A stretch of 64,000 nt of DNA, from assembly GCA_902588585.1 (NCBI GenBank), contig CACIPQ010000002.1, positions 28,911-92,910 on the forward strand, written 5' to 3'. The notes under the pieces were generated by a model. The model made no database searches. It was not told where the DNA came from and saw only the letters and a program-made list of their open reading frames with translations. The position numbers were made by a program, and so were the translations under genes. Position 1 is the first letter of the stretch. Each line of letters starts with the position of its first letter. This document shows positions 7,049 through 48,084 of the stretch, in pieces. This stretch comes from an uncultured Pelagibacteraceae bacterium (GTDB lineage: Bacteria > Pseudomonadota > Alphaproteobacteria > Pelagibacterales > Pelagibacteraceae).

Positions 7049-7099
7049 TAGAAATATTTATTGAATCTTTATATTTTGATTTTATATTATATCTGTTGG

Positions 7100-7352
7100 T
7101 TTTCCAACTATGACGATAAACGAGTTTCGTAATAAACATTGCGGACGTGGGGGCAGTACCCACCACCTCCACCATTTACAACTTATGGGGGTGAATCAGA
7201 ATCGACGGGTGTCTAAAGGCTATTCTTTCGTTCGAGATGGTTCCGACGTAACGGGCTAATTTTAAATGCAAATAATAAATTTGCACTTGCTGCTTAATTA
7301 ACTTTGTTAATTAGGTAAACGGGGTTTGGGGCACCTGGCAACAGAACGCCCC
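7100..7352 (+). ncRNA. ssrA: Two-piece (circularly permuted) tmRNA gene: acceptor piece, 12-nt spacer, then coding piece
   Basis: T-arm gtggg(7147-7151)/cccac(7159-7163), 3' acceptor strand cacctcc(7164-7170) and ACCA(7171-7174) lie UPSTREAM of the 5' strand gggggtg(7187-7193). That strand pairs with the acceptor strand, including a G3:U70-type wobble. The segment GGGGGTGAATCAGAATCGACGGG resembles the canonical tmRNA 5' end. The tag frame is at 7268-7297. Outer boundaries are uncertain by about 30 nt. Confidence 0.85.
7268..7297 (+). other. tmRNA tag reading frame encoding ANNKFALAA followed by a stop
   Basis: gca aat aat aaa ttt gca ctt gct gct taa. It has a GCA resume codon after an A/U-rich tract and ends in the hydrophobic LAA degron typical of tmRNA tags. 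Confidence 0.8.
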
Positions 7353-7354
7353 TT

Positions 7355-8293
7355 CTAATTTTCTAATATTTTTCTTATTCCCGCCTTTAAACTATACCTG
7401 GGTTTAAAGCCAAGTTTTTTAATTTTTTTAATATCAGGAACTCTAATTGTGGTTCCTCCTTTTTTGAGTGGAGATTTTTTCAATATAATTTTCTTATTTA
7501 AAATTTTTGAAATTGTTAAAGCTAATTTTTTCATAGTGATTTTTTCTGTTGTTCCAATATTATAAATATTTAAGTGCTTTCCTTTTTTAATTATTAGTTC
7601 AAATGCTTTTACAAAATCATCTATAAATATAAATGATCTTATCTCGTTGCCAGTGCCTTGAATCTTAAATTTTTTACCCTTTAAATTTTTAAATCTTGCT
7701 AAAAATTCAGGTATCACATGTTCCGTTCCCATATTTAAACCGTAGACATTGTGTGGTCTAAAGATAATTAGTTTTTTAAAAAGTTTTCTTCCTAAATTAA
7801 TGCCCATTACTTCGGTTAAAATCTTTCCTACACCATAAGAATAACGGGGGTTATAAACGTCGGGTACTTTTAACATTTCGTTTTCTGTAGTTGGAATTTT
7901 AAGAGGTGTTTGGTAGACCTCTGAACTAGACGCTAAATATAACTCTTTAATTTTATATTTAACGCATCCGTCTAGAACGTTTAACAATCCTTTTACAGCC
8001 ACATCTAAAACTAAATTTGGTTTTGAGTAAAAATATTTTGTTCCATTAACATACGCAAGATGTATAACAGCATCAATATTGTTTAAACATTTAAAAAATT
8101 TTTTTCTATTTCTTACGTCTCCCTTAATAAAATTTATTTTTTTTTTGGACCTTAATTTTTTAATGGAACCCCTAAAATTATTATCAAAAATGGTAACTCT
8201 AAATCCTTGTCTGATAAGACTTTCTGTAATGTTTCTTCCTATAAACCCGGTACCACCAGTTATTAGATAAGATTTAGTTTTTTTTTTAAACAT
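7355..8293 (-). CDS. Extended-SDR NAD-dependent sugar epimerase/dehydratase (UDP-glucuronate decarboxylase/ArnA-C-terminal-like)
   Basis: Rossmann motif ITGGTGFIGRN, catalytic ASSSEVY and YSYGVGK (YxxxK). It is the last gene of a tightly packed sugar operon. Confidence 0.7.
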   Translation of the reverse strand: MFKKKTKSYLITGGTGFIGRNITESLIRQGFRVTIFDNNFRGSIKKLRSKKKINFIKGDVRNRKKFFKCLNNIDAVIHLAYVNGTKYFYSKPNLVLDVAVKGLLNVLDGCVKYKIKELYLASSSEVYQTPLKIPTTENEMLKVPDVYNPRYSYGVGKILTEVMGINLGRKLFKKLIIFRPHNVYGLNMGTEHVIPEFLARFKNLKGKKFKIQGTGNEIRSFIFIDDFVKAFELIIKKGKHLNIYNIGTTEKITMKKLALTISKILNKKIILKKSPLKKGGTTIRVPDIKKIKKLGFKPRYSLKAGIRKILEN

Positions 8294-8294
8294 T

Positions 8295-9005
8295 TTATTT
8301 TATATTTTTTATACCCCAAATGAACCATCTTAAATATTCTATTAACCAAGGACCAAATTTAAAAGTCGAAGAACCTCCAAAAAGCCTATCAACTGATTTT
8401 AAGGGAAATTCGTCAATTTTATATTTTTTAAGATAAACTTTAATTGAAAGTTCAAATGAAAATGCCCATCCTATGGGTTTAGATTCCAATTTTATTGATT
8501 GCCAAATATTTTTTTTCATCATTTTTATACCCGTTGTACAGTCCGAAAGGGGAATTTTTGTAAAAAATTTAAATGATTTATTTGCAACTCTTGAAAAAAT
8601 TGAACCAATTAATGAACCTCCGAGTCTTATACCTCCTTTGGCATATCGAGTTCCACTTACAAAGTCTAAATCGTTTTGGATAAAATGAGATATCATTTTA
8701 TCAACTGCAACTATTGGAAATATTTCATCAACAGCTGTTATTAAAATTATTTCATATTTTGCATTCTGCACACCAGCCTCAACCGCATGTCTAACGCCTT
8801 TTTCTATTTTGTTATGTACCAACTTTATATTGTCAAATTCTTTAACTAGACTTTGTGCAACATTAATAGCGTTATCTTGTTCCGAGTCATAAACGATTAT
8901 AATTTCTTTAGGAAATTTAATTGAAGAATTAAGCAATCTTACCATAATAGGAAGGCTATCTCTTTCGTTAAATATTGGTAAAATTATTGATAATTCTTTT
9001 TTCAT
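8295..9005 (-). CDS. Family-2 glycosyltransferase (polyprenyl-phosphate sugar transferase, ArnC/Dpm1-like)
   Basis: N-terminal LSIILPIFNE...IIIVYDSEQD GT-A/GT2 signature in a 236-aa protein. Substrate is inferred from operon context only. Confidence 0.65.
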   Translation of the reverse strand: MKKELSIILPIFNERDSLPIMVRLLNSSIKFPKEIIIVYDSEQDNAINVAQSLVKEFDNIKLVHNKIEKGVRHAVEAGVQNAKYEIILITAVDEIFPIVAVDKMISHFIQNDLDFVSGTRYAKGGIRLGGSLIGSIFSRVANKSFKFFTKIPLSDCTTGIKMMKKNIWQSIKLESKPIGWAFSFELSIKVYLKKYKIDEFPLKSVDRLFGGSSTFKFGPWLIEYLRWFIWGIKNIK

Positions 9006-10108
9006 TAATTGTTATTTTTTAAAAATAAATTTATTAAGTTACATACTTTTTTTTGCTCTTTTAAACTCATGTCTAGAGATGACGGAAGCCACATCATTTT
9101 TTTTTGTATTTTCTTAGAATTAGACAACGTTTGGAAAGAAGATTTGTAAGGAAAGCAAGTATTCATGGGATGCCAGTAATATCTACAAATAACATTTTTT
9201 GCTTTTAAAAAATTAAATAATTTATTTCTTTTTTCACAATATACATCTGTCCATAAAGGAAGTTCTCCTTTTTTAAAATTAAAATTTATTATTTTAAATT
9301 TTGAATTTTGGCGAATATTTTTTACATAATATTCGTGTATCTTATTCAGTTTTTTCATTCTCCAGTTTATATTTTTTAATTGGGAAAGGCCTAATGAAGA
9401 TTGTAGGTTTGAAAATTTAAAATTATAACCTTTTGATCTGTAACTGTCCTCTCCTCCTGAAGTTAGCCCAACTCTTCCTTGATCTTTTAATCTTTTAAGA
9501 TTTAAATAAATTTTTTTACTATTAGTGACTACTACTCCCCCTTGACCAGTTGTAATTATTTTATTAGGTGCAAATGAAAAACAACCTGCCTCACCAAAGG
9601 TACCCAGAAATTTTTTTTCATATTTTGATCCAAATGCTTCAGCTGCGTCCTCAATAATCTTAATTGATTTCTTTCTGCAAATATTAACAATGTTTTTAAT
9701 ATTTTTTCCTCTTCCAGAAACATGAACGGGAATTAAAAATTTTGTTTTCTTAGTTATTTTTTTTAATAAAGCTTTTTCATCGATCAAAAGGTTTTTTTGA
9801 TTGATATCAACTAAAACTGGTTTTGCTCCTGCCATTGCTACAGCATTAGCGGTGGCTGGAAAAGTTATATTTGGAATTATAACTTCATCATTATTTTTAA
9901 CGCCGCATGCCTTCAATGCTAAAAAAATTGCTGTTGTTCCGCTGGTTGTTGTAGCTGCATACTTAACTTTTAAAAAATTACATATTTTTTTTTCAAATTC
10001 TTTTGTTTGTTTTCCTTCATTAGGAAAATTATTTTTAAGAACATTTCTAGTTATATTTATGGTATCGGTTATATTTATTAAGGGTTTAGATAGAATTATC
10101 TTTTTCAT
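9005..10108 (-). CDS. DegT/DnrJ/EryC1/StrS-family PLP sugar aminotransferase (ArnB-like)
   Basis: 367 aa with ATTTSGTTAIFLAL and IIEDAAEAFGS blocks, and an FSFAPNKIITTGQGG Lys-containing block typical of sugar 4- or 3-aminotransferases. Confidence 0.8.
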   Translation of the reverse strand: MKKIILSKPLINITDTINITRNVLKNNFPNEGKQTKEFEKKICNFLKVKYAATTTSGTTAIFLALKACGVKNNDEVIIPNITFPATANAVAMAGAKPVLVDINQKNLLIDEKALLKKITKKTKFLIPVHVSGRGKNIKNIVNICRKKSIKIIEDAAEAFGSKYEKKFLGTFGEAGCFSFAPNKIITTGQGGVVVTNSKKIYLNLKRLKDQGRVGLTSGGEDSYRSKGYNFKFSNLQSSLGLSQLKNINWRMKKLNKIHEYYVKNIRQNSKFKIINFNFKKGELPLWTDVYCEKRNKLFNFLKAKNVICRYYWHPMNTCFPYKSSFQTLSNSKKIQKKMMWLPSSLDMSLKEQKKVCNLINLFLKNNN

Positions 10109-10110
10109 TT

Positions 10111-10896
10111 TTATTTTGGCGAATTTATAAGTTTATGAGTAGAAACCAAATTTTTGCTCACAAAATAATAAGATTGGGTTCCAATTGTAATTTTTGGTGG
10201 TGGAAAAGGCTCATGAATCATTGATCTAAGAAAATTATAAATTTTTCTTCCGCTCCATGACCAATTGATTTTTCCATTATTAGGAAAATTTTTCTTCTTA
10301 TACTTAAGATTTTGACCTTTAAGCCTATAACTAAAAATTTTTTGTTTCTTTAAAATTTTACTAAAAATTTTTTTGAACTCTTTAAAACTTTCATTCGTAA
10401 ACTTTTTATAAAGAGTTTCAGCTGTATCATGATTTAAAATTTTAATTTTTCTTTTTGATATAATTCTGCCTGAGTCTATTTTTTTTCCCAACCAATGTGC
10501 CGTTATACCTGTCAATTTTTCTCCATTAAATATTGCATGAACTAAAGAGTATCTACCTCTATACTTTGGTAGTAGAGAAGGATGAATGTTCAAAACACCA
10601 AATCTTGGATAGCTAACTAATTCTGATGGTAATATTTGTGTAGAACCCAAACAAAATATCACATCTAAATTTATTTTTTTTTTTACTAATACTTTTTTTA
10701 ATTTCTTTAATTCTATTTTTTTTAATTTATTTTTTTTAGATAATTTTGATACTGATTTATTAAATGAATTGTCAGTACCGTTGTCATCCTTATTACAAAC
10801 AACATATAAAGGTTTAATTTTTCTTTTCAGTAAATAGCTTAAGCAATTGTAGCCTAGCTGTTTGCCCCCAACAAAAATATAATTTAATTTTTTCAT
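10111..10896 (-). CDS. Formyltransferase (Fmt/ArnA-N-terminal/sugar N-formyltransferase-like)
   Basis: LNIHPSLLPKYRG motif (the folate-dependent formyltransferase HxSLLPxxRG) in a 261-aa protein. Confidence 0.75.
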   Translation of the reverse strand: MKKLNYIFVGGKQLGYNCLSYLLKRKIKPLYVVCNKDDNGTDNSFNKSVSKLSKKNKLKKIELKKLKKVLVKKKINLDVIFCLGSTQILPSELVSYPRFGVLNIHPSLLPKYRGRYSLVHAIFNGEKLTGITAHWLGKKIDSGRIISKRKIKILNHDTAETLYKKFTNESFKEFKKIFSKILKKQKIFSYRLKGQNLKYKKKNFPNNGKINWSWSGRKIYNFLRSMIHEPFPPPKITIGTQSYYFVSKNLVSTHKLINSPK

Positions 10897-12081
10897 CTAC
10901 TCTTTAGATCGACCCCATATATCTATAACATGTTTATTTTTGGAAAATTTTAAATTCATATATTTTTTATGGGGCGCACCAATAATTATTATATCAGATT
11001 TTTTTATAAGACTATTCGTTTTATAATAGTTTTTATCTCTGTAATAGACATCGCTATATATAACCTTAAATTTTCTTTTTTTTAATTTTTTTATCAAATC
11101 AATTGATAAAGAATCTCTAATATCGTCTGTTTCAGCTTTAAAAGTTACACCAAGAATACCAATAATTTTTTTTTTAGAATTTTTAATATTTTCTACTTTT
11201 TCAATAACCAAGTCTACCATGCTTTGATTTATCTTCATTGATGCAAAACCTAATTCAAATCTACCTTTGTAAAATGAACTCAGTTGCATTGTATCTTTTA
11301 ACAAACATGGTCCGGCAGTAAATCCTGACTTTGGCAGATTTAAATTTCTCTCATAACCAAACTTCATCAATTTTCTAATTCTATCAAAATCGACATTGTA
11401 TTTTTCACACATAATAAAAAGTTGGTTTGCAATTGCAAAATTGATGTATCTATTAGCATTTGAAAATAATTTTATTAGTTCAGCTTCCTGAATAGTCGAA
11501 AGAAGAATTTTTTTACAAATTTTTTTAAAAAGTTTACTGACTATATGAACAGAATTTTTATTAACCCCAGCCACTACTTGTGGTAAGTTAGGCAGTTCAA
11601 TTAAAGCTTTGCTTTGGACAATTCTTTCAGGACAATAAACAATATTGTTATTTTTCGTTTTTAAAATTTTTGATATTTTTCTTATCATTCCAGGATAAAC
11701 AGAGCTACGAATTATGAGTATTTGATTTTTGTTGATAATTTTTAACAATTTATAAAATAAAGCTACGAAGTTTTTAACCTCGGGTTTTAATTTTTTATTT
11801 ACGGGTGTACCTATGCAAATTATTATAAATTTACTTGTTTTGACTGTTTTCAAATCATTGCTAAAAGATAAAATTTTTTTTTTTAAGCACTTGTGTAAAA
11901 GTTTTTTTGCGCCTATTTCATAAAAAGGCGGTATACCTAATTTAATTTTATTTAAATTTTTTTGATCAACGTCAACTAAGTTAATTTTATATTTTTTTGA
12001 TCCAAATGCTAAGCCAAGAGGAAATCCAACGTGTCCTGCTCCACCTACAATACTAATAGAATTTTTAATAATTTTATTCAT
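10897..12081 (-). CDS. Nucleotide-sugar 6-dehydrogenase (UDP-glucose/GDP-mannose dehydrogenase family)
   Basis: N-terminal Rossmann motif ISIVGGAGHVGFPLGLAF and a catalytic-Cys block GFTAGPCLLKD, in a 394-aa protein. The sugar substrate cannot be assigned. Confidence 0.75.
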   Translation of the reverse strand: MNKIIKNSISIVGGAGHVGFPLGLAFGSKKYKINLVDVDQKNLNKIKLGIPPFYEIGAKKLLHKCLKKKILSFSNDLKTVKTSKFIIICIGTPVNKKLKPEVKNFVALFYKLLKIINKNQILIIRSSVYPGMIRKISKILKTKNNNIVYCPERIVQSKALIELPNLPQVVAGVNKNSVHIVSKLFKKICKKILLSTIQEAELIKLFSNANRYINFAIANQLFIMCEKYNVDFDRIRKLMKFGYERNLNLPKSGFTAGPCLLKDTMQLSSFYKGRFELGFASMKINQSMVDLVIEKVENIKNSKKKIIGILGVTFKAETDDIRDSLSIDLIKKLKKRKFKVIYSDVYYRDKNYYKTNSLIKKSDIIIIGAPHKKYMNLKFSKNKHVIDIWGRSKE

Positions 12082-12122
12082 ATTGAAGATTAATTTGTAT
12101 TATTATACTAACTAATAGTAAA

Positions 12123-13364
12123 ATGAAAAAGTACTCCAAAATAATTACAAAGTGTCAATTCTCTAAAAAAAAAGATCTTCAAACTGTTTTATCACTTGGA
12201 TTTTTGCCTGGTGTCAATCAAATGCAAAAAGTTAATTCGAATAATAATTTTGAGTATTTTTTTCCTACTAATTTAGTTTATTCACCATCCTCAAAATTAT
12301 TTCAAATTGATAACATAGTTGACAAAAAAATTTTATTTCCAAAAAGTTATCCTTATACAAGTAGCACAACAAAAATTTTGCGTGATAATTTTGAAAATTT
12401 GTATAAAGAAACTAAAAATACTTTTGGATTAAATAAAGATGACCTTGTTGTTGATATTGGGTCTAATGATGGTAACCTTTTAAAAAAATTTAAAAACTGT
12501 AAAGTTCTAGGAGTAACTCCTGAAAAAATTGGATACAAAGCCATTAGAGACGGGATACCTACAATCATAAACTATTTTAATAAAAAAGTGGTTAATCAAA
12601 TAAATAAAAAATATGGAAAAGCAAAAATTATTACAGCAACCAATGTTTTTGCGCATATAGATAACATTGATGATTTAATGAGAAATATTCTTAAACTAAT
12701 AAAGGAAGATGGTGTTTTTATAACTGAGTCACATTATTTTCTGTCTCTGGTCAAAACACTGCAGTATGACACAATTTATCATGAACATTTAAGATATTAC
12801 ACTGTAACGAGCTTAAAAAATATTTTTAAAAAATATGGAATGAAAATTATAAAAGTAAAAAAAATAAATACTCATGGTGGTTCAATTAGGGTCTATGCTG
12901 TAAAAAATAAAAAATTTTCAATTGATAAAAGTGTAAATAAGTCGCTAATCGAAGAAAAAACATTTTTGTCAAAAAAAAATATAAAGTTATTTAGAAATAA
13001 AGTATTAAAATCTAAGTCTGATTTACTTTCAAAGATTTTAAAGATTAAAAAAAATAATAATTCTATTTTTGCAGTAGGAGCACCTTCGAGAGCAACTACT
13101 TTGGTAAATTATGTTGGTTTAAATGAAAATTTAATTGACTGTATTTGTGAAATCAAAGGATCTCACAAAATTAGTCATTATTTACCTGGAACTCGAATAC
13201 CTATTGTGTCTGAACAAATAATTTTTAAAAAAAAACCCGAATACTTGCTGATATTGTCATGGCACATTTCAAGAGAACTAATAAAAAATTTAAGAAAAAA
13301 AGGTTACAAAGGAAAATTCATTATACCTTTACCAAATCCTAAAATTGTCAGAAAATATAATTAG
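12123..13364 (+). CDS. SAM-dependent C-methyltransferase (NDP-hexose C-methyltransferase-like)
   Basis: Class I motif I is VVDIGSNDGNLL. The long C-terminal domain and overall 413-aa architecture resemble TylCIII-type sugar C-methyltransferases. This is a by-eye call. Confidence 0.6.
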   Translation: MKKYSKIITKCQFSKKKDLQTVLSLGFLPGVNQMQKVNSNNNFEYFFPTNLVYSPSSKLFQIDNIVDKKILFPKSYPYTSSTTKILRDNFENLYKETKNTFGLNKDDLVVDIGSNDGNLLKKFKNCKVLGVTPEKIGYKAIRDGIPTIINYFNKKVVNQINKKYGKAKIITATNVFAHIDNIDDLMRNILKLIKEDGVFITESHYFLSLVKTLQYDTIYHEHLRYYTVTSLKNIFKKYGMKIIKVKKINTHGGSIRVYAVKNKKFSIDKSVNKSLIEEKTFLSKKNIKLFRNKVLKSKSDLLSKILKIKKNNNSIFAVGAPSRATTLVNYVGLNENLIDCICEIKGSHKISHYLPGTRIPIVSEQIIFKKKPEYLLILSWHISRELIKNLRKKGYKGKFIIPLPNPKIVRKYN

Positions 13365-14864
13365 ATGGATAAATTCTTAAAATTTTTAAGTAATAAATAT
13401 ATTTTGTCTATTCTTTTTATTAATATATTTTTTTTTCTTTTAACTTTTAACAATCCATGGACATTAGATGATTACGGATATTTTTCTGCAGGAAAGTTAT
13501 ACAATCTAATTAATAATAAAGTAATTAGTTTTGAACCTTTTATTTTTGGAAGTGGCTATGGCCTTCATTTAGAAAGCAGATATATGCCATTATTTTATTT
13601 TTTGAATCAAATACTGCCTTCTTCTAGCATCTTGTTTCATTTAATTATTGTTACTGTTCACACTCTTACATGTTTTATAGTTTTTTTAATCTCAGAAAAA
13701 ATATTTCAAAAAAAAAATTTGTCTTTTTTATTTTCACTTTTTTACACTCTAAACTACAGCATAAGTATTAAAGCATTATCCTGGAATGTATTCTATGGAC
13801 ATATAATTGCTGCCTTTTTTGGTTTGCTATCTATATATTTTTTAATTTTATTATTTGAAGAAAAAAGAATAAAAAAAATTTATTTATTAATTTATTTTTT
13901 ATTATCTTCTTTTTCTTTTTTAACAACCGAAAGCGGTTTAGTATTTCCAATAATAGGATCCTTTATTCTTTTGTTTTTTTTCAAAAAAGATAAATTAATA
14001 TCAAAATTTTTTATTTCTTTATTCCCATTGGTTATATTTATATTCTTAGTTTATTTAAATACTGGAAAAATTTTACCTTTGCTAAAAGATAGAGCAACAA
14101 ACGAAGATCAAACTAAAGTTGAAAAAATTTTAAATTCAAATAATGAAAATAAAATTCATTTTTACAGATCTACTTATGCCCCACGTAATTTAGAGGGATA
14201 TGTATTAAGAAGCATTGATAACGTACTTGGAAGTATTAACCTAACTTCTCTTGAAAAAGTATTAAAGTATTATGATAAAAACGATATAATCAAATTTCAT
14301 TTTAAAAAGAATATATACTTTTTTCTTACTGCTATACTTTTTATTATATTGTTTTTCTTATTTTTTATTTTAAAAGAAAAGTACTCAAAAAAAAATCTCA
14401 ATTTAATAACCAAAAGCTTTGTAATTTATTTATTAATATTTTTTATTTATAGTATAATTTTTTTTAGAAGAGATATAAATTTTGGCCTATCTTTCTGTTC
14501 CGCGCTATTGCTAACCAGTTTAATTAAAAACTTAAATGATAACAATTCTATTTTAAAAATTAGGTTAATAGTAATTTCTTTTGTGCTTCCTTCAGTTCTT
14601 TATGCTGCAACTTTTTTTTCCTACTGGGGAGAAGATTGGGGTCCAAAATCTGAAATGATAAAAAAATCAAACTACATAATTCAAATGACAAAAAAAGGTG
14701 AGCTTATTCAAAATTTGAAGTATCGTACTGATTATAAAAACTTATATTACCTTTACCATTTTAATAACTATCAAAGTTATTTGAGCAAAAAATATAAAAA
14801 TATGAATTTTATTAATTTTCAGAAAACTTTAGAAAAAGATTTTGAATTATTTCAAAATAAATAA
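13365..14864 (+). CDS. Polytopic membrane protein, candidate GT-C-fold glycosyltransferase (ArnT/PMT-like)
   Basis: 499 aa with more than 10 hydrophobic segments. An acidic pair sits in the first predicted loop (NPWTLDDYGYF) and the C-terminal ~100 aa look soluble. The start codon directly follows the methyltransferase stop (TAG ATG). Confidence 0.4.
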   Translation: MDKFLKFLSNKYILSILFINIFFFLLTFNNPWTLDDYGYFSAGKLYNLINNKVISFEPFIFGSGYGLHLESRYMPLFYFLNQILPSSSILFHLIIVTVHTLTCFIVFLISEKIFQKKNLSFLFSLFYTLNYSISIKALSWNVFYGHIIAAFFGLLSIYFLILLFEEKRIKKIYLLIYFLLSSFSFLTTESGLVFPIIGSFILLFFFKKDKLISKFFISLFPLVIFIFLVYLNTGKILPLLKDRATNEDQTKVEKILNSNNENKIHFYRSTYAPRNLEGYVLRSIDNVLGSINLTSLEKVLKYYDKNDIIKFHFKKNIYFFLTAILFIILFFLFFILKEKYSKKNLNLITKSFVIYLLIFFIYSIIFFRRDINFGLSFCSALLLTSLIKNLNDNNSILKIRLIVISFVLPSVLYAATFFSYWGEDWGPKSEMIKKSNYIIQMTKKGELIQNLKYRTDYKNLYYLYHFNNYQSYLSKKYKNMNFINFQKTLEKDFELFQNK

Positions 14865-14873
14865 TGTTTTTTC

Positions 14874-15245
14874 TTACGCAACAAATTTACTCAAATCTGG
14901 TTTAAAATAATTTGGCCCTTTCATAACTTTGCCCTTGTCATTATAAATAGGTTTCCCATCTGATCCTAATTTGCTCATGTTCGAATTTTGTACCTCTTCA
15001 AAACATTTGTCGAGATTAATTCCAAAAGCATGACCAGCTCCATATGTAACATAAAGTATATCTGTTAATGCGTCCGCAACCTCTTTAATGTCTTTTTTAT
15101 CGATAGCTTCTTTTAACTCTAATAATTCCTCTTTTATAAGGTCGTATCTAAGACTAATAATTTTTTCCTCAGGAAATTCGGCATTTTCCTTTACCTCTTG
15201 GCCGAAAGTTTGCATAAATTTTTTCACACTAGTAAAATTACTCAT
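14874..15245 (-). CDS. MazG-like nucleoside triphosphate pyrophosphohydrolase domain protein
   Basis: 123 aa, all-alpha, with the EE..EL..A....D...E.AD.L.D..Y pattern ([13 protein letters not shown]...[12 protein letters not shown]). Confidence 0.6.
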
Positions 15246-46428: not shown

Positions 46429-48084
46429 TTAATTATTTAATTTTTTTGTATTAATAAATATTTCATTAATAGTAATGCCGTCAACTTTAAATTTATAATA
46501 AGATTTAAAGTGATTGGGGATATTATATCTTTTTTTATTAAAAATTGGTCTAACAAAATAATAGTAGTTTGTGAAAATCAAGTCCGCCTTATCATGATTA
46601 TCCTCAATAAAAACAAACTTTTTTCTTAAATTTTTATCCATTATTAGCTTGGTTTTATTTAAATCAGTGAAACTAGCTGAGGAAATTTTCAAAGGATAAT
46701 TGAATTTATCCCCTTTCAAAATTTTCTCTAAAGTTCTTTGATTTGATAACCCCCAATAATCAAGGGGGAAGTTACTTTGAATAAAATTTTTACTTAATAA
46801 ATTAAAATAAACATGCTGGTGGGGATGATATTTAAAAATATAAAAAACATTAAATAATATTTGAATAGTAAAAAATATAGTAAAAATTTTAAAAAATTTT
46901 TTATTTTTCAAATGCTTTAAATAATTTAAGAAATAAAGTCCTAAAATTATTAAAGAAGGATAGAGAAAATACAATTGCCTCCATCCATTATATAAAGTTG
47001 AATTAAAAACAACAACTGAGATAGCTGGTATTAAAAAAATAAATAAAATGAAAACTAATATCATTTCGTTTTTATTTTTCCATAAATTATTATAACTAAT
47101 TTTTTCTACATTAATTAAGTTTTTTATAAAAATTGAAGATGATCTAAATAAGCCTAAGGCAATTATTAAAAAAAACATAATTGGTGTTGTTATAAAAAAC
47201 CAAACAAAAAAATAGTGCCACGGTAAAAATTTTGCTTTTAAAAAATTTCCAAAATATAAAACTTCACCTTCCCAAGGATAATTTTTAAATTCTTTTAATG
47301 AAATTATTAATTTATAAATATTGCCATCCCACATCCAGGGCCAAAACAGAATAAAAAAAATTGAAAAAGATATTAGATATTTAAATGATTTAATAAGTTT
47401 TACTTTTACATCTTTTTTATTTTCTCCGTTAAAAAATAAAAAAAATATAGTTAAAGCCGGAAGATACATTGCAATTACCCTTATATCTGTCGCAAAAGCT
47501 GAAAATAAAGATCCAAGAATAATATATTTATTGCTCTTTTCTTGGAGAAATTTGATATTAAAAAAAATAGCGAACACAAATGAGGACATTAATATTATAT
47601 CTTTGGGATTATAAAAACTTTCAGCAAAAATTCTTGGAGATGAAATTAAGAATAATAAACCAATTAAAGAAATAATATTATCTTTGAAAATATATTGAAG
47701 CAAAAAATAAAAACATATTGTAGATGAAAAAAATACTAGAAAATTTATTAGATGTTTTAATAAATAAATTTCTTGAGAGTCGCTTAAATTTAATATTACT
47801 TCAATAGCTGCCAAGGGTAAATCAAATGCAACTCCATAGGCTCTATCAACATAGTTTGTTAGATTGGGTAAATTGTTAATAAATAAATTTAAATTAATAT
47901 TTATGCCAAACTTTTCAAAAATATGTTTAAGAGAAACAAAGCCATTAAGTCTATTTATATTCTCATCAAACGAAATACCGTAATCTTTAAAAATAAAAAT
48001 CCCAAATAACAGATAGATTGCTAAAAGCAGAAATATTAAAATCTTTGACTCGAAATATTGTTTTGTATAATTTATTAAATTCAT
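46429..48084 (-). CDS. Polytopic membrane protein, candidate GT-C-fold glycosyltransferase (ArnT/PMT_2-like)
   Basis: 551 aa. The first loop carries acidic residues (YGISFDEN). An NGWRQLYFLYPSL block resembles the RYxxPxxP block of GT39/GT83 enzymes. The C-terminal ~130 aa look soluble. Confidence 0.45.
   Translation of the reverse strand: MNLINYTKQYFESKILIFLLLAIYLLFGIFIFKDYGISFDENINRLNGFVSLKHIFEKFGININLNLFINNLPNLTNYVDRAYGVAFDLPLAAIEVILNLSDSQEIYLLKHLINFLVFFSSTICFYFLLQYIFKDNIISLIGLLFLISSPRIFAESFYNPKDIILMSSFVFAIFFNIKFLQEKSNKYIILGSLFSAFATDIRVIAMYLPALTIFFLFFNGENKKDVKVKLIKSFKYLISFSIFFILFWPWMWDGNIYKLIISLKEFKNYPWEGEVLYFGNFLKAKFLPWHYFFVWFFITTPIMFFLIIALGLFRSSSIFIKNLINVEKISYNNLWKNKNEMILVFILFIFLIPAISVVVFNSTLYNGWRQLYFLYPSLIILGLYFLNYLKHLKNKKFFKIFTIFFTIQILFNVFYIFKYHPHQHVYFNLLSKNFIQSNFPLDYWGLSNQRTLEKILKGDKFNYPLKISSASFTDLNKTKLIMDKNLRKKFVFIEDNHDKADLIFTNYYYFVRPIFNKKRYNIPNHFKSYYKFKVDGITINEIFINTKKLNN

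Follow-up and report, generated by a model that had tools for sequence, protein, structure and literature searches.

A TylC3-type sugar C-methyltransferase gene abuts the gene of a divergent GT-C-like membrane protein in a predicted surface-glycan cassette of Pelagibacteraceae

We analysed a 64,000-nucleotide stretch of DNA from an uncultured SAR11-type alphaproteobacterium of the Pelagibacteraceae (assembly GCA_902588585.1, contig CACIPQ010000002.1, positions 28,911–92,910 of the forward strand; hereafter the window), with a focus on two adjoining plus-strand genes. The first (12123–13364) encodes a 413-amino-acid (aa) protein predicted to be a nucleoside diphosphate (NDP)-sugar C-methyltransferase of the TylC3/TcaB9/MtmC type, and the second (13365–14864) encodes a 499-aa membrane protein that we assign, from modelling and profile comparison, to a new family of glycosyltransferases with the glycosyltransferase C (GT-C) fold. 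The open reading frame (ORF) listing and the raw sequence place the TAG of the methyltransferase gene (13362–13364) directly against the ATG of the membrane protein gene (13365). On the other side, a 41-bp divergent spacer (12082–12122), presumed to be a shared control region, separates the methyltransferase ORF from a minus-strand dehydrogenase ORF that starts at 12081. Both the abutment and the spacer had been described in the initial annotation of this DNA with coordinates that proved exact, and the motif it had cited for the methyltransferase, VVDIGSNDGNLL, is present in the sequence. With the five minus-strand genes beyond the spacer, the pair forms a seven-gene block bounded by a permuted tmRNA gene and by a MazG-like gene, which is followed by fumC. 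The assembly comprises ~1 Mb and is 87% complete, and G+C content across the window ranges from 24 to 36%.

The methyltransferase shows the three-domain architecture of sugar C-methyltransferases. Its zinc-ribbon N-terminal domain, class I S-adenosylmethionine (SAM) domain and C-methyltransferase C-terminal domain are matched by the Pfam models Methyltransf_13 (PF08421, 32.3 bits), Methyltransf_23 (PF13489, 62.8 bits) and Methyltransf_14 (PF08484, 125.6 bits), respectively, all above their cut-offs. A sequence search of the PDB returned only sugar 3-C-methyltransferases as relatives, with full-length matches to MtmC (4rv9, E 6.3e-55, residues 6–409), TcaB9 (3ndi, 4e-42) and a KijD1-type enzyme (5t64, 3e-37). 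Residues Y76, H178, Y219, E221 and H222 align with the identical residues Y78, H183, Y224, E226 and H227 of the TcaB9 chain, which lie at a uniform offset of +2 from the TcaB9 catalytic set (Tyr76, His181, Tyr222, Glu224 and His225); all five positions are thus kept. The four-cysteine zinc site is altered: the CrmC...CrsC of MtmC corresponds to CqfS...SpsS in the window protein, with three of the four cysteines replaced by serine in knuckles at residues 11–14 and 54–57 (window positions 12153–12164 and 12282–12293). The same CQFS...SxxS pattern is common to all SAR11 orthologues examined, at loci L008, L010, L013, L017, L018 and L023 (L-labels denote the related loci that were compared, G-labels genomes, and G000 the source genome). 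The zinc site of this methyltransferase family is structural and not catalytic. Based on its sequence, we assign the protein to the TylC3/TcaB9/MtmC-type NDP-sugar C-methyltransferases and predict that it catalyses SAM-dependent C-methylation of an NDP-4-keto sugar, in agreement with the earlier suggestion of an NDP-hexose C-methyltransferase-like enzyme; it groups with the solved sugar 3-C-methyltransferases and not with lipid, protein or other non-sugar methyltransferases.

TylC3-type enzymes are best known from antibiotic pathways. They are also common among Pelagibacteraceae: 272 of the 401 genomes searched have at least one family member. The source genome carries a second stand-alone paralogue (L024; G000:C1:105592–106809, minus strand) with 35% identity, all three Pfam domains and a stronger zinc-domain match (53.6 bits). 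Published descriptions of a fusion between a short-chain dehydrogenase/reductase (SDR) and a C-methyltransferase were not found; such a fusion lies next to lon on contig 1 of genome G020, where an 847-aa ORF (L047:4391–6934, minus strand) joins an N-terminal RmlD/epimerase-type SDR to a complete TylC3-type C-methyltransferase carrying PF08421, PF13489 and PF08484. A large proportion of the searched Pelagibacteraceae genomes contain frames of ~850 aa with 37–41% identity to the window methyltransferase. By its domain content, this protein looks like a conserved bifunctional sugar ketoreductase/C-methyltransferase.

The membrane protein gave no match to Pfam or NCBIfam models at E ≤ 0.01, and no sequence match in the PDB was obtained either with the single protein or with a 39-sequence profile. 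Its family is rare: it accounts for 15 clusters among 5.8 billion proteins, was detected in 5 of 400 other Pelagibacteraceae species genomes (E ≤ 0.001; one of these is a marginal 70-residue match at E 1e-4) and in none of 400 other genomes of the same class at E ≤ 1e-10. A word-indexed search with the family alignment added almost no further members, and in the searches made here the family was seen only in Pelagibacteraceae-type DNA. An AlphaFold2 model built from 14 homologues (pLDDT 83, pTM 0.86) was compared with known structures by Foldseek, which listed 50 of the 221 matches with E ≤ 10. The best matches among those listed were AglB (7e9s, E 1.6e-3, probability 1.0), DPY19, ArnT (5f15), STT3, AftB, AftA and Pmt4. 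Every listed match with a probability of at least 0.8 was a GT-C enzyme and no other protein among the 50 exceeded 0.33.

Profile comparisons point in the same direction. An exhaustive profile search retrieved 736 relatives, of which the more distant (E 1e-10 to 1e-7) align to profile positions 13–233. These distant relatives are TMTC-like or PMT-like proteins that carry a PMT_2 domain, usually with TPR repeats; in an alignment of 43 of them (A3), 19 matched PMT_2 and 3 matched PMT. When the family alignment (A1) was compared with A3 by hhalign, the two were related with 99.7% probability (E 6.8e-27) over 375 columns covering the transmembrane (TM) core, with the DD, R-x-x-P, S-I-K-x-L-x-W and T-E-S-G blocks of the family aligned to the DD, YRP, HxEAVxW and KE motifs of the relatives. 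Both groups have the DD after TM1, a (Y)RP motif in their first loop and, following TM5, an invariant Glu. The window protein differs from these relatives in lacking a TPR domain, in carrying instead a helical C-terminal domain, in having an invariant Lys (K136) where their HPxHxEAVxW motif has Glu, and in being too divergent to match the PMT_2 model. Aligned with the strong PMT_2 protein of the source genome as a single sequence, the family gave a weak result (24%, E 8e-4), and a PDB search with the A3 profile was swamped by TPR proteins.

The model helices indicate 11 TM segments, with the N-terminus inside and the C-terminus outside, followed by a small all-helical periplasmic domain of ~85 residues at the C-terminus; the short loops contain 12 Lys and Arg residues on the inside vs 3 on the outside. 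In this topology the DD motif (D35-D36) sits 8 residues past TM1, and the invariant charged residues (D36, K44, K136, H146, E189, R243, R268, R274, R282, R368 and D370) all fall in periplasmic loops or at outer helix ends, with none in cytoplasmic loops. Taken together, the Foldseek matches, the hhalign result, the 11-helix topology and the periplasmic placement of the invariant residues identify the predicted structure as that of a GT-C enzyme whose active site would face the periplasm and be fed by a lipid-linked donor. The GT-C-like character proposed at the outset is thus borne out, whereas equivalence to ArnT in the sense of family membership is not. The protein matches no ArnT or PMT_2 model, its nearest relatives are the PMT_2/TPR proteins, and it has 11 predicted TM helices instead of the 13, plus a C-terminal periplasmic domain, of ArnT (structures 5ezm and 5f15); we therefore place it outside the ArnT family (GT83). 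What it shares with ArnT is genetic linkage to ArnA-, ArnB- and ArnC-type enzymes, through the divergent five-gene operon and in 10 of the 13 contexts described below.

The source genome also encodes three canonical PMT_2 GT-C proteins (window positions 46429–48084, minus strand; L040:1351–2715, plus strand; G000:C6:25415–25861). The one at L040 (454 aa, 109 bits) has a glycosyltransferase family 2 (GT2) gene immediately downstream, in a classic ArnT/ArnC-like pair, so the genome appears to run several lipid-linked decoration systems.

The coupling of the two plus-strand genes was examined in 13 distinct contexts of the membrane-protein family. A TylC3-type methyltransferase gene lies immediately upstream on the same strand in nine of them: the window, G063 (L008), G113 (L010/L049), G038 (L011), L027–29, L033, L034/35, L036 and L037. 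The junctions in the other eight lie between an 8-nt overlap and a 5-nt gap, compared with the direct TAG|ATG contact in the window, and this close pairing persists with membrane proteins of 32–39% identity and over four gene orders. In a tenth context, L051, orthologues of all seven genes (38–68% identity) form one co-directional operon in the order membrane protein, LbH acyltransferase, dehydrogenase, formyltransferase, C-methyltransferase, aminotransferase, GT2 and SDR. In total, 10 of 13 contexts combine the methyltransferase with the membrane-protein family in one cluster, and direct adjacency in nine contexts and a common operon in the tenth, despite GT-C identities of 32–39%, show that the pairing is not a chance neighbourhood.

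Related cassettes vary around a stable core. In L048 the gene order of the window is repeated, again at thyX, on a contig that breaks off just past the methyltransferase gene, and rearranged six-gene versions are found in L008, L010, L011, L033 and L034. A formyltransferase is present in the window, L048, L019, L050 and L051; its place is taken by an LbH acyltransferase in L017, L022, L034 and L038/L039, and by an RmlD-like SDR in L010, L011, L027, L033 and L036. Orthologues of the extended SDR of the window (63–85% identity) occur in every complete cassette, and the dehydrogenase is the most constant neighbour of the methyltransferase across contexts. From this gene content, the core consists of the dehydrogenase, the SDR, the GT2 and the C-methyltransferase, and the genes for the 4-substituent and the GT-C are exchangeable. 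The co-occurrence of the seven genes that the initial annotation had proposed to check is thus confirmed, with four of them forming the recurrent core and all seven together in L051. Cassettes are located either at the ssrA/thyX–fumC locus or beside rRNA genes (the hypervariable region 2, HVR2, setting), both of them flexible islands such as have been described in SAR11 (PMC11796062). A co-variation of GT-C clade and GT2 type with the 4-substituent genes was considered and dropped, since L051 joins a 480-type GT-C, the formyltransferase/aminotransferase set and a 66%-identical GT2.

Two further genes accompany sister islands. A histone-deacetylase-family gene (PF00850; L030:4757–5653 and L008:3482–4375), absent from the window, lies beside the GT-C gene or at the island edge and could be a deacylase in the role of ArnD. 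Divergent from the methyltransferase gene in two sister cassettes is an OafA-like O-acyltransferase gene with Acyl_transf_3 and SGNH domains (L008:11818–13794 and L034:1823–3799), which points to a surface-glycan acceptor.

The five enzymes encoded on the minus strand of the window complete the set. Nearest the spacer is an NDP-sugar 6-dehydrogenase (394 aa, 10897–12081) with the N-terminal, central and C-terminal UDPG_MGDP_dh domains and a match to TIGR03026 above its cut-off (277 bits). It is followed by a formyltransferase (261 aa, 10111–10896; Formyl_trans_N) that resembles the N-terminal domain of ArnA, with NCBIfam scores of 130 bits for PRK06988 and 124 bits for the ArnA N-terminal region, and by a DegT/ArnB-type pyridoxal phosphate-dependent sugar aminotransferase (367 aa, 9005–10108; DegT_DnrJ_EryC1, E 4.9e-91), whose NCBIfam matches are LegC-, PseC- and ArnB-like models, all below cut-off. 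The GT2 protein (236 aa, 8295–9005; Glycos_transf_2) is a probable polyprenyl-phosphate sugar synthase of the DPM1/GtrB/ArnC type, judged by its PDB relatives: the best was the Pyrococcus dolichol-phosphate-mannose synthase 5mlz, matched in full length (4.5e-14), with GtrB and ArnC (9hwj) next. Its NCBIfam matches were all far below cut-off, with PgaC at the top and dolichyl-phosphate hexose transferase, PpgS, AglJ and ArnC also among them. The last gene encodes an extended SDR (312 aa, 7355–8293; Epimerase and GDP_Man_Dehyd) with the active-site stretch SSSEVY, a putative uronate 4-oxidase/decarboxylase of the UXS or ArnA C-terminal-domain type. No nucleotidyltransferase gene was found in any cassette version examined.

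In the pathway that we infer for these genes, the 6-dehydrogenase would convert a housekeeping UDP-sugar to a uronic acid, and the extended SDR would oxidise C-4 and decarboxylate the product to an NDP-4-keto-pentose. TylC3-type methyltransferases and DegT aminotransferases both need an NDP-4-keto sugar, and the SDR is the sole cassette candidate to supply one; on this basis the 4-keto step is assigned to it. Oxidative decarboxylation of UDP-uronate, as by ArnA and UXS, is favoured by the constant 6-dehydrogenase partner of the SDR and the absence of a nucleotidyltransferase. The methyltransferase would then deprotonate a carbon beside the 4-ketone, which the analogy to TcaB9 and MtmC suggests to be C-3, and methylate it from SAM, the aminotransferase would replace the 4-ketone by an amine and the formyltransferase would N-formylate this 4-amine. 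The short GT2 would load the finished sugar onto polyprenyl phosphate and, after flipping across the membrane, the 499-aa GT-C would transfer it at the periplasmic face to an envelope acceptor, which may be lipopolysaccharide/lipid A, another glycan or a protein. The product is most likely a polyprenyl-phosphate-linked 3-C-methyl-4-formamido-4-deoxy-pentose, possibly with a 2-acetamido group, and the cassette probably decorates the cell envelope with a methyl-branched amino sugar that has not been described before, both the sugar and its target being predictions. On balance we lean slightly towards this reading, in which the seven genes form a horizontally shuffled SAR11 surface-glycan cassette that combines Arn/Gtr-like periplasmic glycosylation with an added sugar C-methylation.

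Several observations weigh against it. The Foldseek values behind the GT-C assignment are modest, with TM-scores of 0.26–0.43 and E-values from 1.6e-3 to 0.9. The cassette contains no flippase or deformylase gene, and the interval between the tmRNA gene and the MazG-like gene at 14874 has no space for more genes; ArnD and ArnE/F are absent from the cassette, a genome-wide search with their models not having been made, and the genome (87% complete) yielded no GtrA-type flippase. The methyltransferase gene also occurs apart from both glycosyltransferases, in an 85-kb Logan contig (DRR583368, L050) without GT2 or GT-C. There, an operon of dehydrogenase, formyltransferase, aminotransferase and SDR genes is divergent from a 75%-identical methyltransferase gene and is flanked by the genes for pyruvate kinase and other housekeeping functions; a branched NDP-sugar made at this locus would need a different kind of transferase. 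The remaining objections concern the linkage of the GT-C to the pathway and the nature of the sugar, and each is the basis of an alternative.

According to the first alternative, the GT-C is a mere neighbour that uses a different polyprenyl-phosphate sugar, and its position reflects island packaging. Three of the 13 contexts of its family have no methyltransferase: a 35% paralogue in G177 (L009), the closest homologue (57% identity), which occupies the same fumC/MazG flank and lacks sugar genes in the 3 kb upstream of it (L030–32), and an LbH–GT-C–SDR arrangement (L038/39). Conversely, close methyltransferase orthologues (≥63% identity) form more than 120 clusters and far outnumber the GT-C family; these retain the divergent dehydrogenase as a partner, but the polytopic proteins paired with them are different ones, as in L017, L019, L022 and L023. 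One such partner (L017, 424 aa) has GT-C-like profile similarity (hhalign 95% over 96 columns), and those at L023 (471 aa) and L051 (557 aa) gave no significant GT-C signal as single sequences. The trees of the two proteins look incongruent, the counterparts in G113 being 82% identical for the methyltransferase and only 35% for the GT-C, and the genome encodes three PMT_2 GT-Cs besides this protein, with at least one further GT2 partner. Against mere neighbourhood stand the near-zero spacing, maintained in four gene orders and at GT-C identities as low as 32%, and the arrangement in L051, where the GT-C gene heads a co-directional operon containing all six enzymes. The cassette GT2 would, moreover, be left with no transferase for its product. 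We consider this alternative unlikely, and retain the GT-C as the predicted transferase of the cassette sugar.

The second alternative, which we likewise regard as unlikely, is that the C-methylated sugar is not a pentose. The SDR would then be a 4,6-dehydratase or a 4-oxidase that does not decarboxylate, and the product a branched 4-amino-6-deoxyhexose, a branched hexuronate or a sugar methylated at C-5 as with NovU; the lipid-linked logic would be unchanged. The SDR matches a promiscuous GDP-sugar 4-epimerase (8rdg, 2e-29), a 4,6-dehydratase (2e-25), UXS1 (4lk3, 1.6e-24) and ArnA (1e-13) in the PDB, the first three at similar scores, and no curated NCBIfam model passes its cut-off: dehydratase models reach 119 bits vs 69 for UXS-type and 64 for ArnA models, the higher scores being those for dTDP-glucose 4,6-dehydratase, LegB and GalE. 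The SSE active-site triplet occurs in GDP-mannose 4,6-dehydratase as well and, to our knowledge and from the molecule names in the PDB, all characterised members of the methyltransferase family methylate 6-deoxyhexoses. The start sugar is also affected, as the dehydrogenase is closer in the PDB to the UDP-ManNAc dehydrogenases 4r16 and Cap5O than to Ugd and the substrate may thus be an N-acetylhexosamine. On the other side, the methyltransferase has no more constant partner than the 6-dehydrogenase, 4,6-dehydration of a uronic acid is impossible, and no cassette version carries a nucleotidyltransferase for a dTDP, CDP or GDP route. A pentose derived from UDP-uronate therefore remains our preferred product. 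The designation of the minus-strand genes as an Arn-like operon is sound as an analogy between enzyme families, but the scores of the SDR and the dehydrogenase do not establish the decarboxylase step or the start sugar.

It is very improbable that the membrane protein is an O-antigen polymerase or ligase (Wzy/WaaL), a flippase or a transporter: the lack of any Pfam, NCBIfam or PDB sequence match and some low-probability Foldseek matches to MFS and CLC transporters would fit such a protein, but those matches reach a probability of only 0.04–0.33 with TM-scores of 0.1–0.17, neither WaaL nor Wzy is among the 50 matches listed, and the high-probability structural matches and the hhalign relationship to PMT_2-bearing proteins lead to GT-C enzymes. 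Least credible of all is a methyltransferase acting on a lipid, quinone or protein, as might be read from the automatic JGI name "benzoquinol methylase" for a 75%-identical relative (P0208) and a weak match to the UbiG NCBIfam model (19.7 bits vs a cut-off of 103), given its N- and C-terminal domains specific to sugar C-methyltransferases, PDB E-values of 1e-37 to 1e-55 for sugar 3-C-methyltransferases only, its conserved catalytic residues and the position of the L051 gene between those of a sugar formyltransferase and a sugar aminotransferase.

The initial annotation had proposed that the locus installs a branched formamido sugar through an ArnT equivalent. The identities of the methyltransferase and the GT-C and their linkage within a cassette uphold one part of this proposal, and membership of the GT-C in the ArnT family falls away. 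The branched formamido sugar stands as a coherent proposal, short of demonstration, in view of the missing ArnT features, the lack of an ArnD, ArnE/F or GtrA partner, the variable formyltransferase, the ambiguity of the SDR and the dehydrogenase and the three contexts without a methyltransferase. A bolder version, which we put forward as speculative and would not expect to hold in full, is that SAR11 envelopes carry a sugar new to any organism, 3-C-methyl-4-formamido-4-deoxy-pentose, with 4-acetamido and 4-hydroxy variants in sister cassettes, made from UDP-uronate in an Arn-type pathway that has taken up a C-methyltransferase, attached by a previously unrecognised GT-C family and serving as a surface-variation and phage-evasion module. 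The last element, if true, would follow from the movement of the cassette between flexible islands, at the ssrA/thyX site and at the rRNA-linked HVR2.

Comparison with described systems shows which features are shared. The Arn (Pmr) pathway modifies lipid A with 4-amino-4-deoxy-L-arabinose and consists of Ugd, ArnA, ArnB, ArnC, ArnD, ArnE/F and ArnT. Like it, the cassette comprises a 6-dehydrogenase, an extended SDR, a DegT aminotransferase, a formyltransferase, a probable GT2 polyprenyl-phosphate sugar synthase and a GT-C with a predicted periplasmic active site. In contrast to Arn, the functions of ArnA are split between two genes, a TylC3-type C-methyltransferase is added, and the ArnD deformylase and ArnE/F flippase are absent from the cassette. 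Moreover, ArnT models do not match the GT-C, for which 11 TM helices are predicted, the nearest PDB relatives of the dehydrogenase are UDP-ManNAc dehydrogenases, and the formyltransferase is swapped for an LbH acyltransferase or RmlD-like SDR in sister cassettes. With the three-component Gtr systems of O-antigen glucosylation (GtrA/GtrB/Gtr(type)) and the related PpgS/Rv3779 and CsbB/YfhO it shares, by prediction, the scheme in which a small GT2 makes a polyprenyl-phosphate monosaccharide that a variable GT-C transfers outside the cytoplasm, as well as an island-borne and exchangeable character and, beside sister cassettes, an AT3-SGNH O-acyltransferase like OafA in serotype conversion. The donor, however, would be the product of a five-enzyme NDP-sugar tailoring branch with C-methylation and not a housekeeping sugar, and no GtrA was found in the genome. 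TylC3, TcaB9, MtmC and KijD1 belong to actinomycete antibiotic pathways, and a TylC3-like enzyme has been proposed for Coxiella virenose. The SAR11 enzyme has their three domains, full-length homology and Tyr/His/Tyr/Glu/His set; it differs in its serine-substituted zinc site, in partner genes that point to a UDP-uronate-derived 4-keto sugar and not a dTDP- or GDP-4-keto-6-deoxyhexose, and in a product proposed to be headed for a lipid-linked envelope pathway and not for a secondary metabolite.

Surface glycans of SAR11 are thought to drive phage–host dynamics in these bacteria, the most abundant in the sea, although almost nothing is known about the chemistry of the glycans and most membrane proteins of the variable islands are unannotated. 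Our literature searches found no paper on the present gene combination and nothing relevant that links SAR11, or an Arn/UXS-type pathway, with a sugar C-methyltransferase, and the main text of the mBio paper on the SAR11 O-chain cluster contains no mention of a methyltransferase, arabinose, a formyltransferase or ArnT. Particular to this cassette are a TylC3-type C-methyltransferase predicted to act at the nucleotide-sugar stage of an Arn-like set and a GT-C family outside the curated models. For a branched amino sugar, the cassette suggests a specific biosynthetic route that can be tested; it extends the Arn/Gtr scheme of lipid-linked single-sugar decoration by a tailoring step that forms a C–C bond, and it gives an unannotated family of membrane proteins a predicted fold and a candidate active site.

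The divergent spacer is itself conserved. It is identical at 41 of 41 positions in L013 and at 39 of 41 in L010, whereas the flanking proteins are only 69–87% identical, which suggests a constrained bidirectional control element. A second conserved spacer type, of 40 bp, serves the RmlD-type cassettes L027, L033, L036 and L037. Scans for promoter-like and terminator consensus sequences gave matches no higher than the shuffled background, such scans being uninformative in AT-rich DNA.

On the right, the cassette ends at a MazG/PRA-PH-like gene (14874–15245, minus strand; Pfam PRA-PH) that belongs to the conserved flank outside it. This MazG–fumC–AsmA flank recurs in L008 and L030–L032 with different island content. 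The left border is the permuted tmRNA gene predicted by ARAGORN (7079–7388, plus strand); one SAR11 genomic island with a tmRNA border has been reported (PMC11796062). The tmRNA span overlaps the final 34 nt of the SDR ORF (7355–7388, with the stop at 7355), and either the 3' boundary of the tmRNA is over-called or the SDR gene ends within the tmRNA gene.

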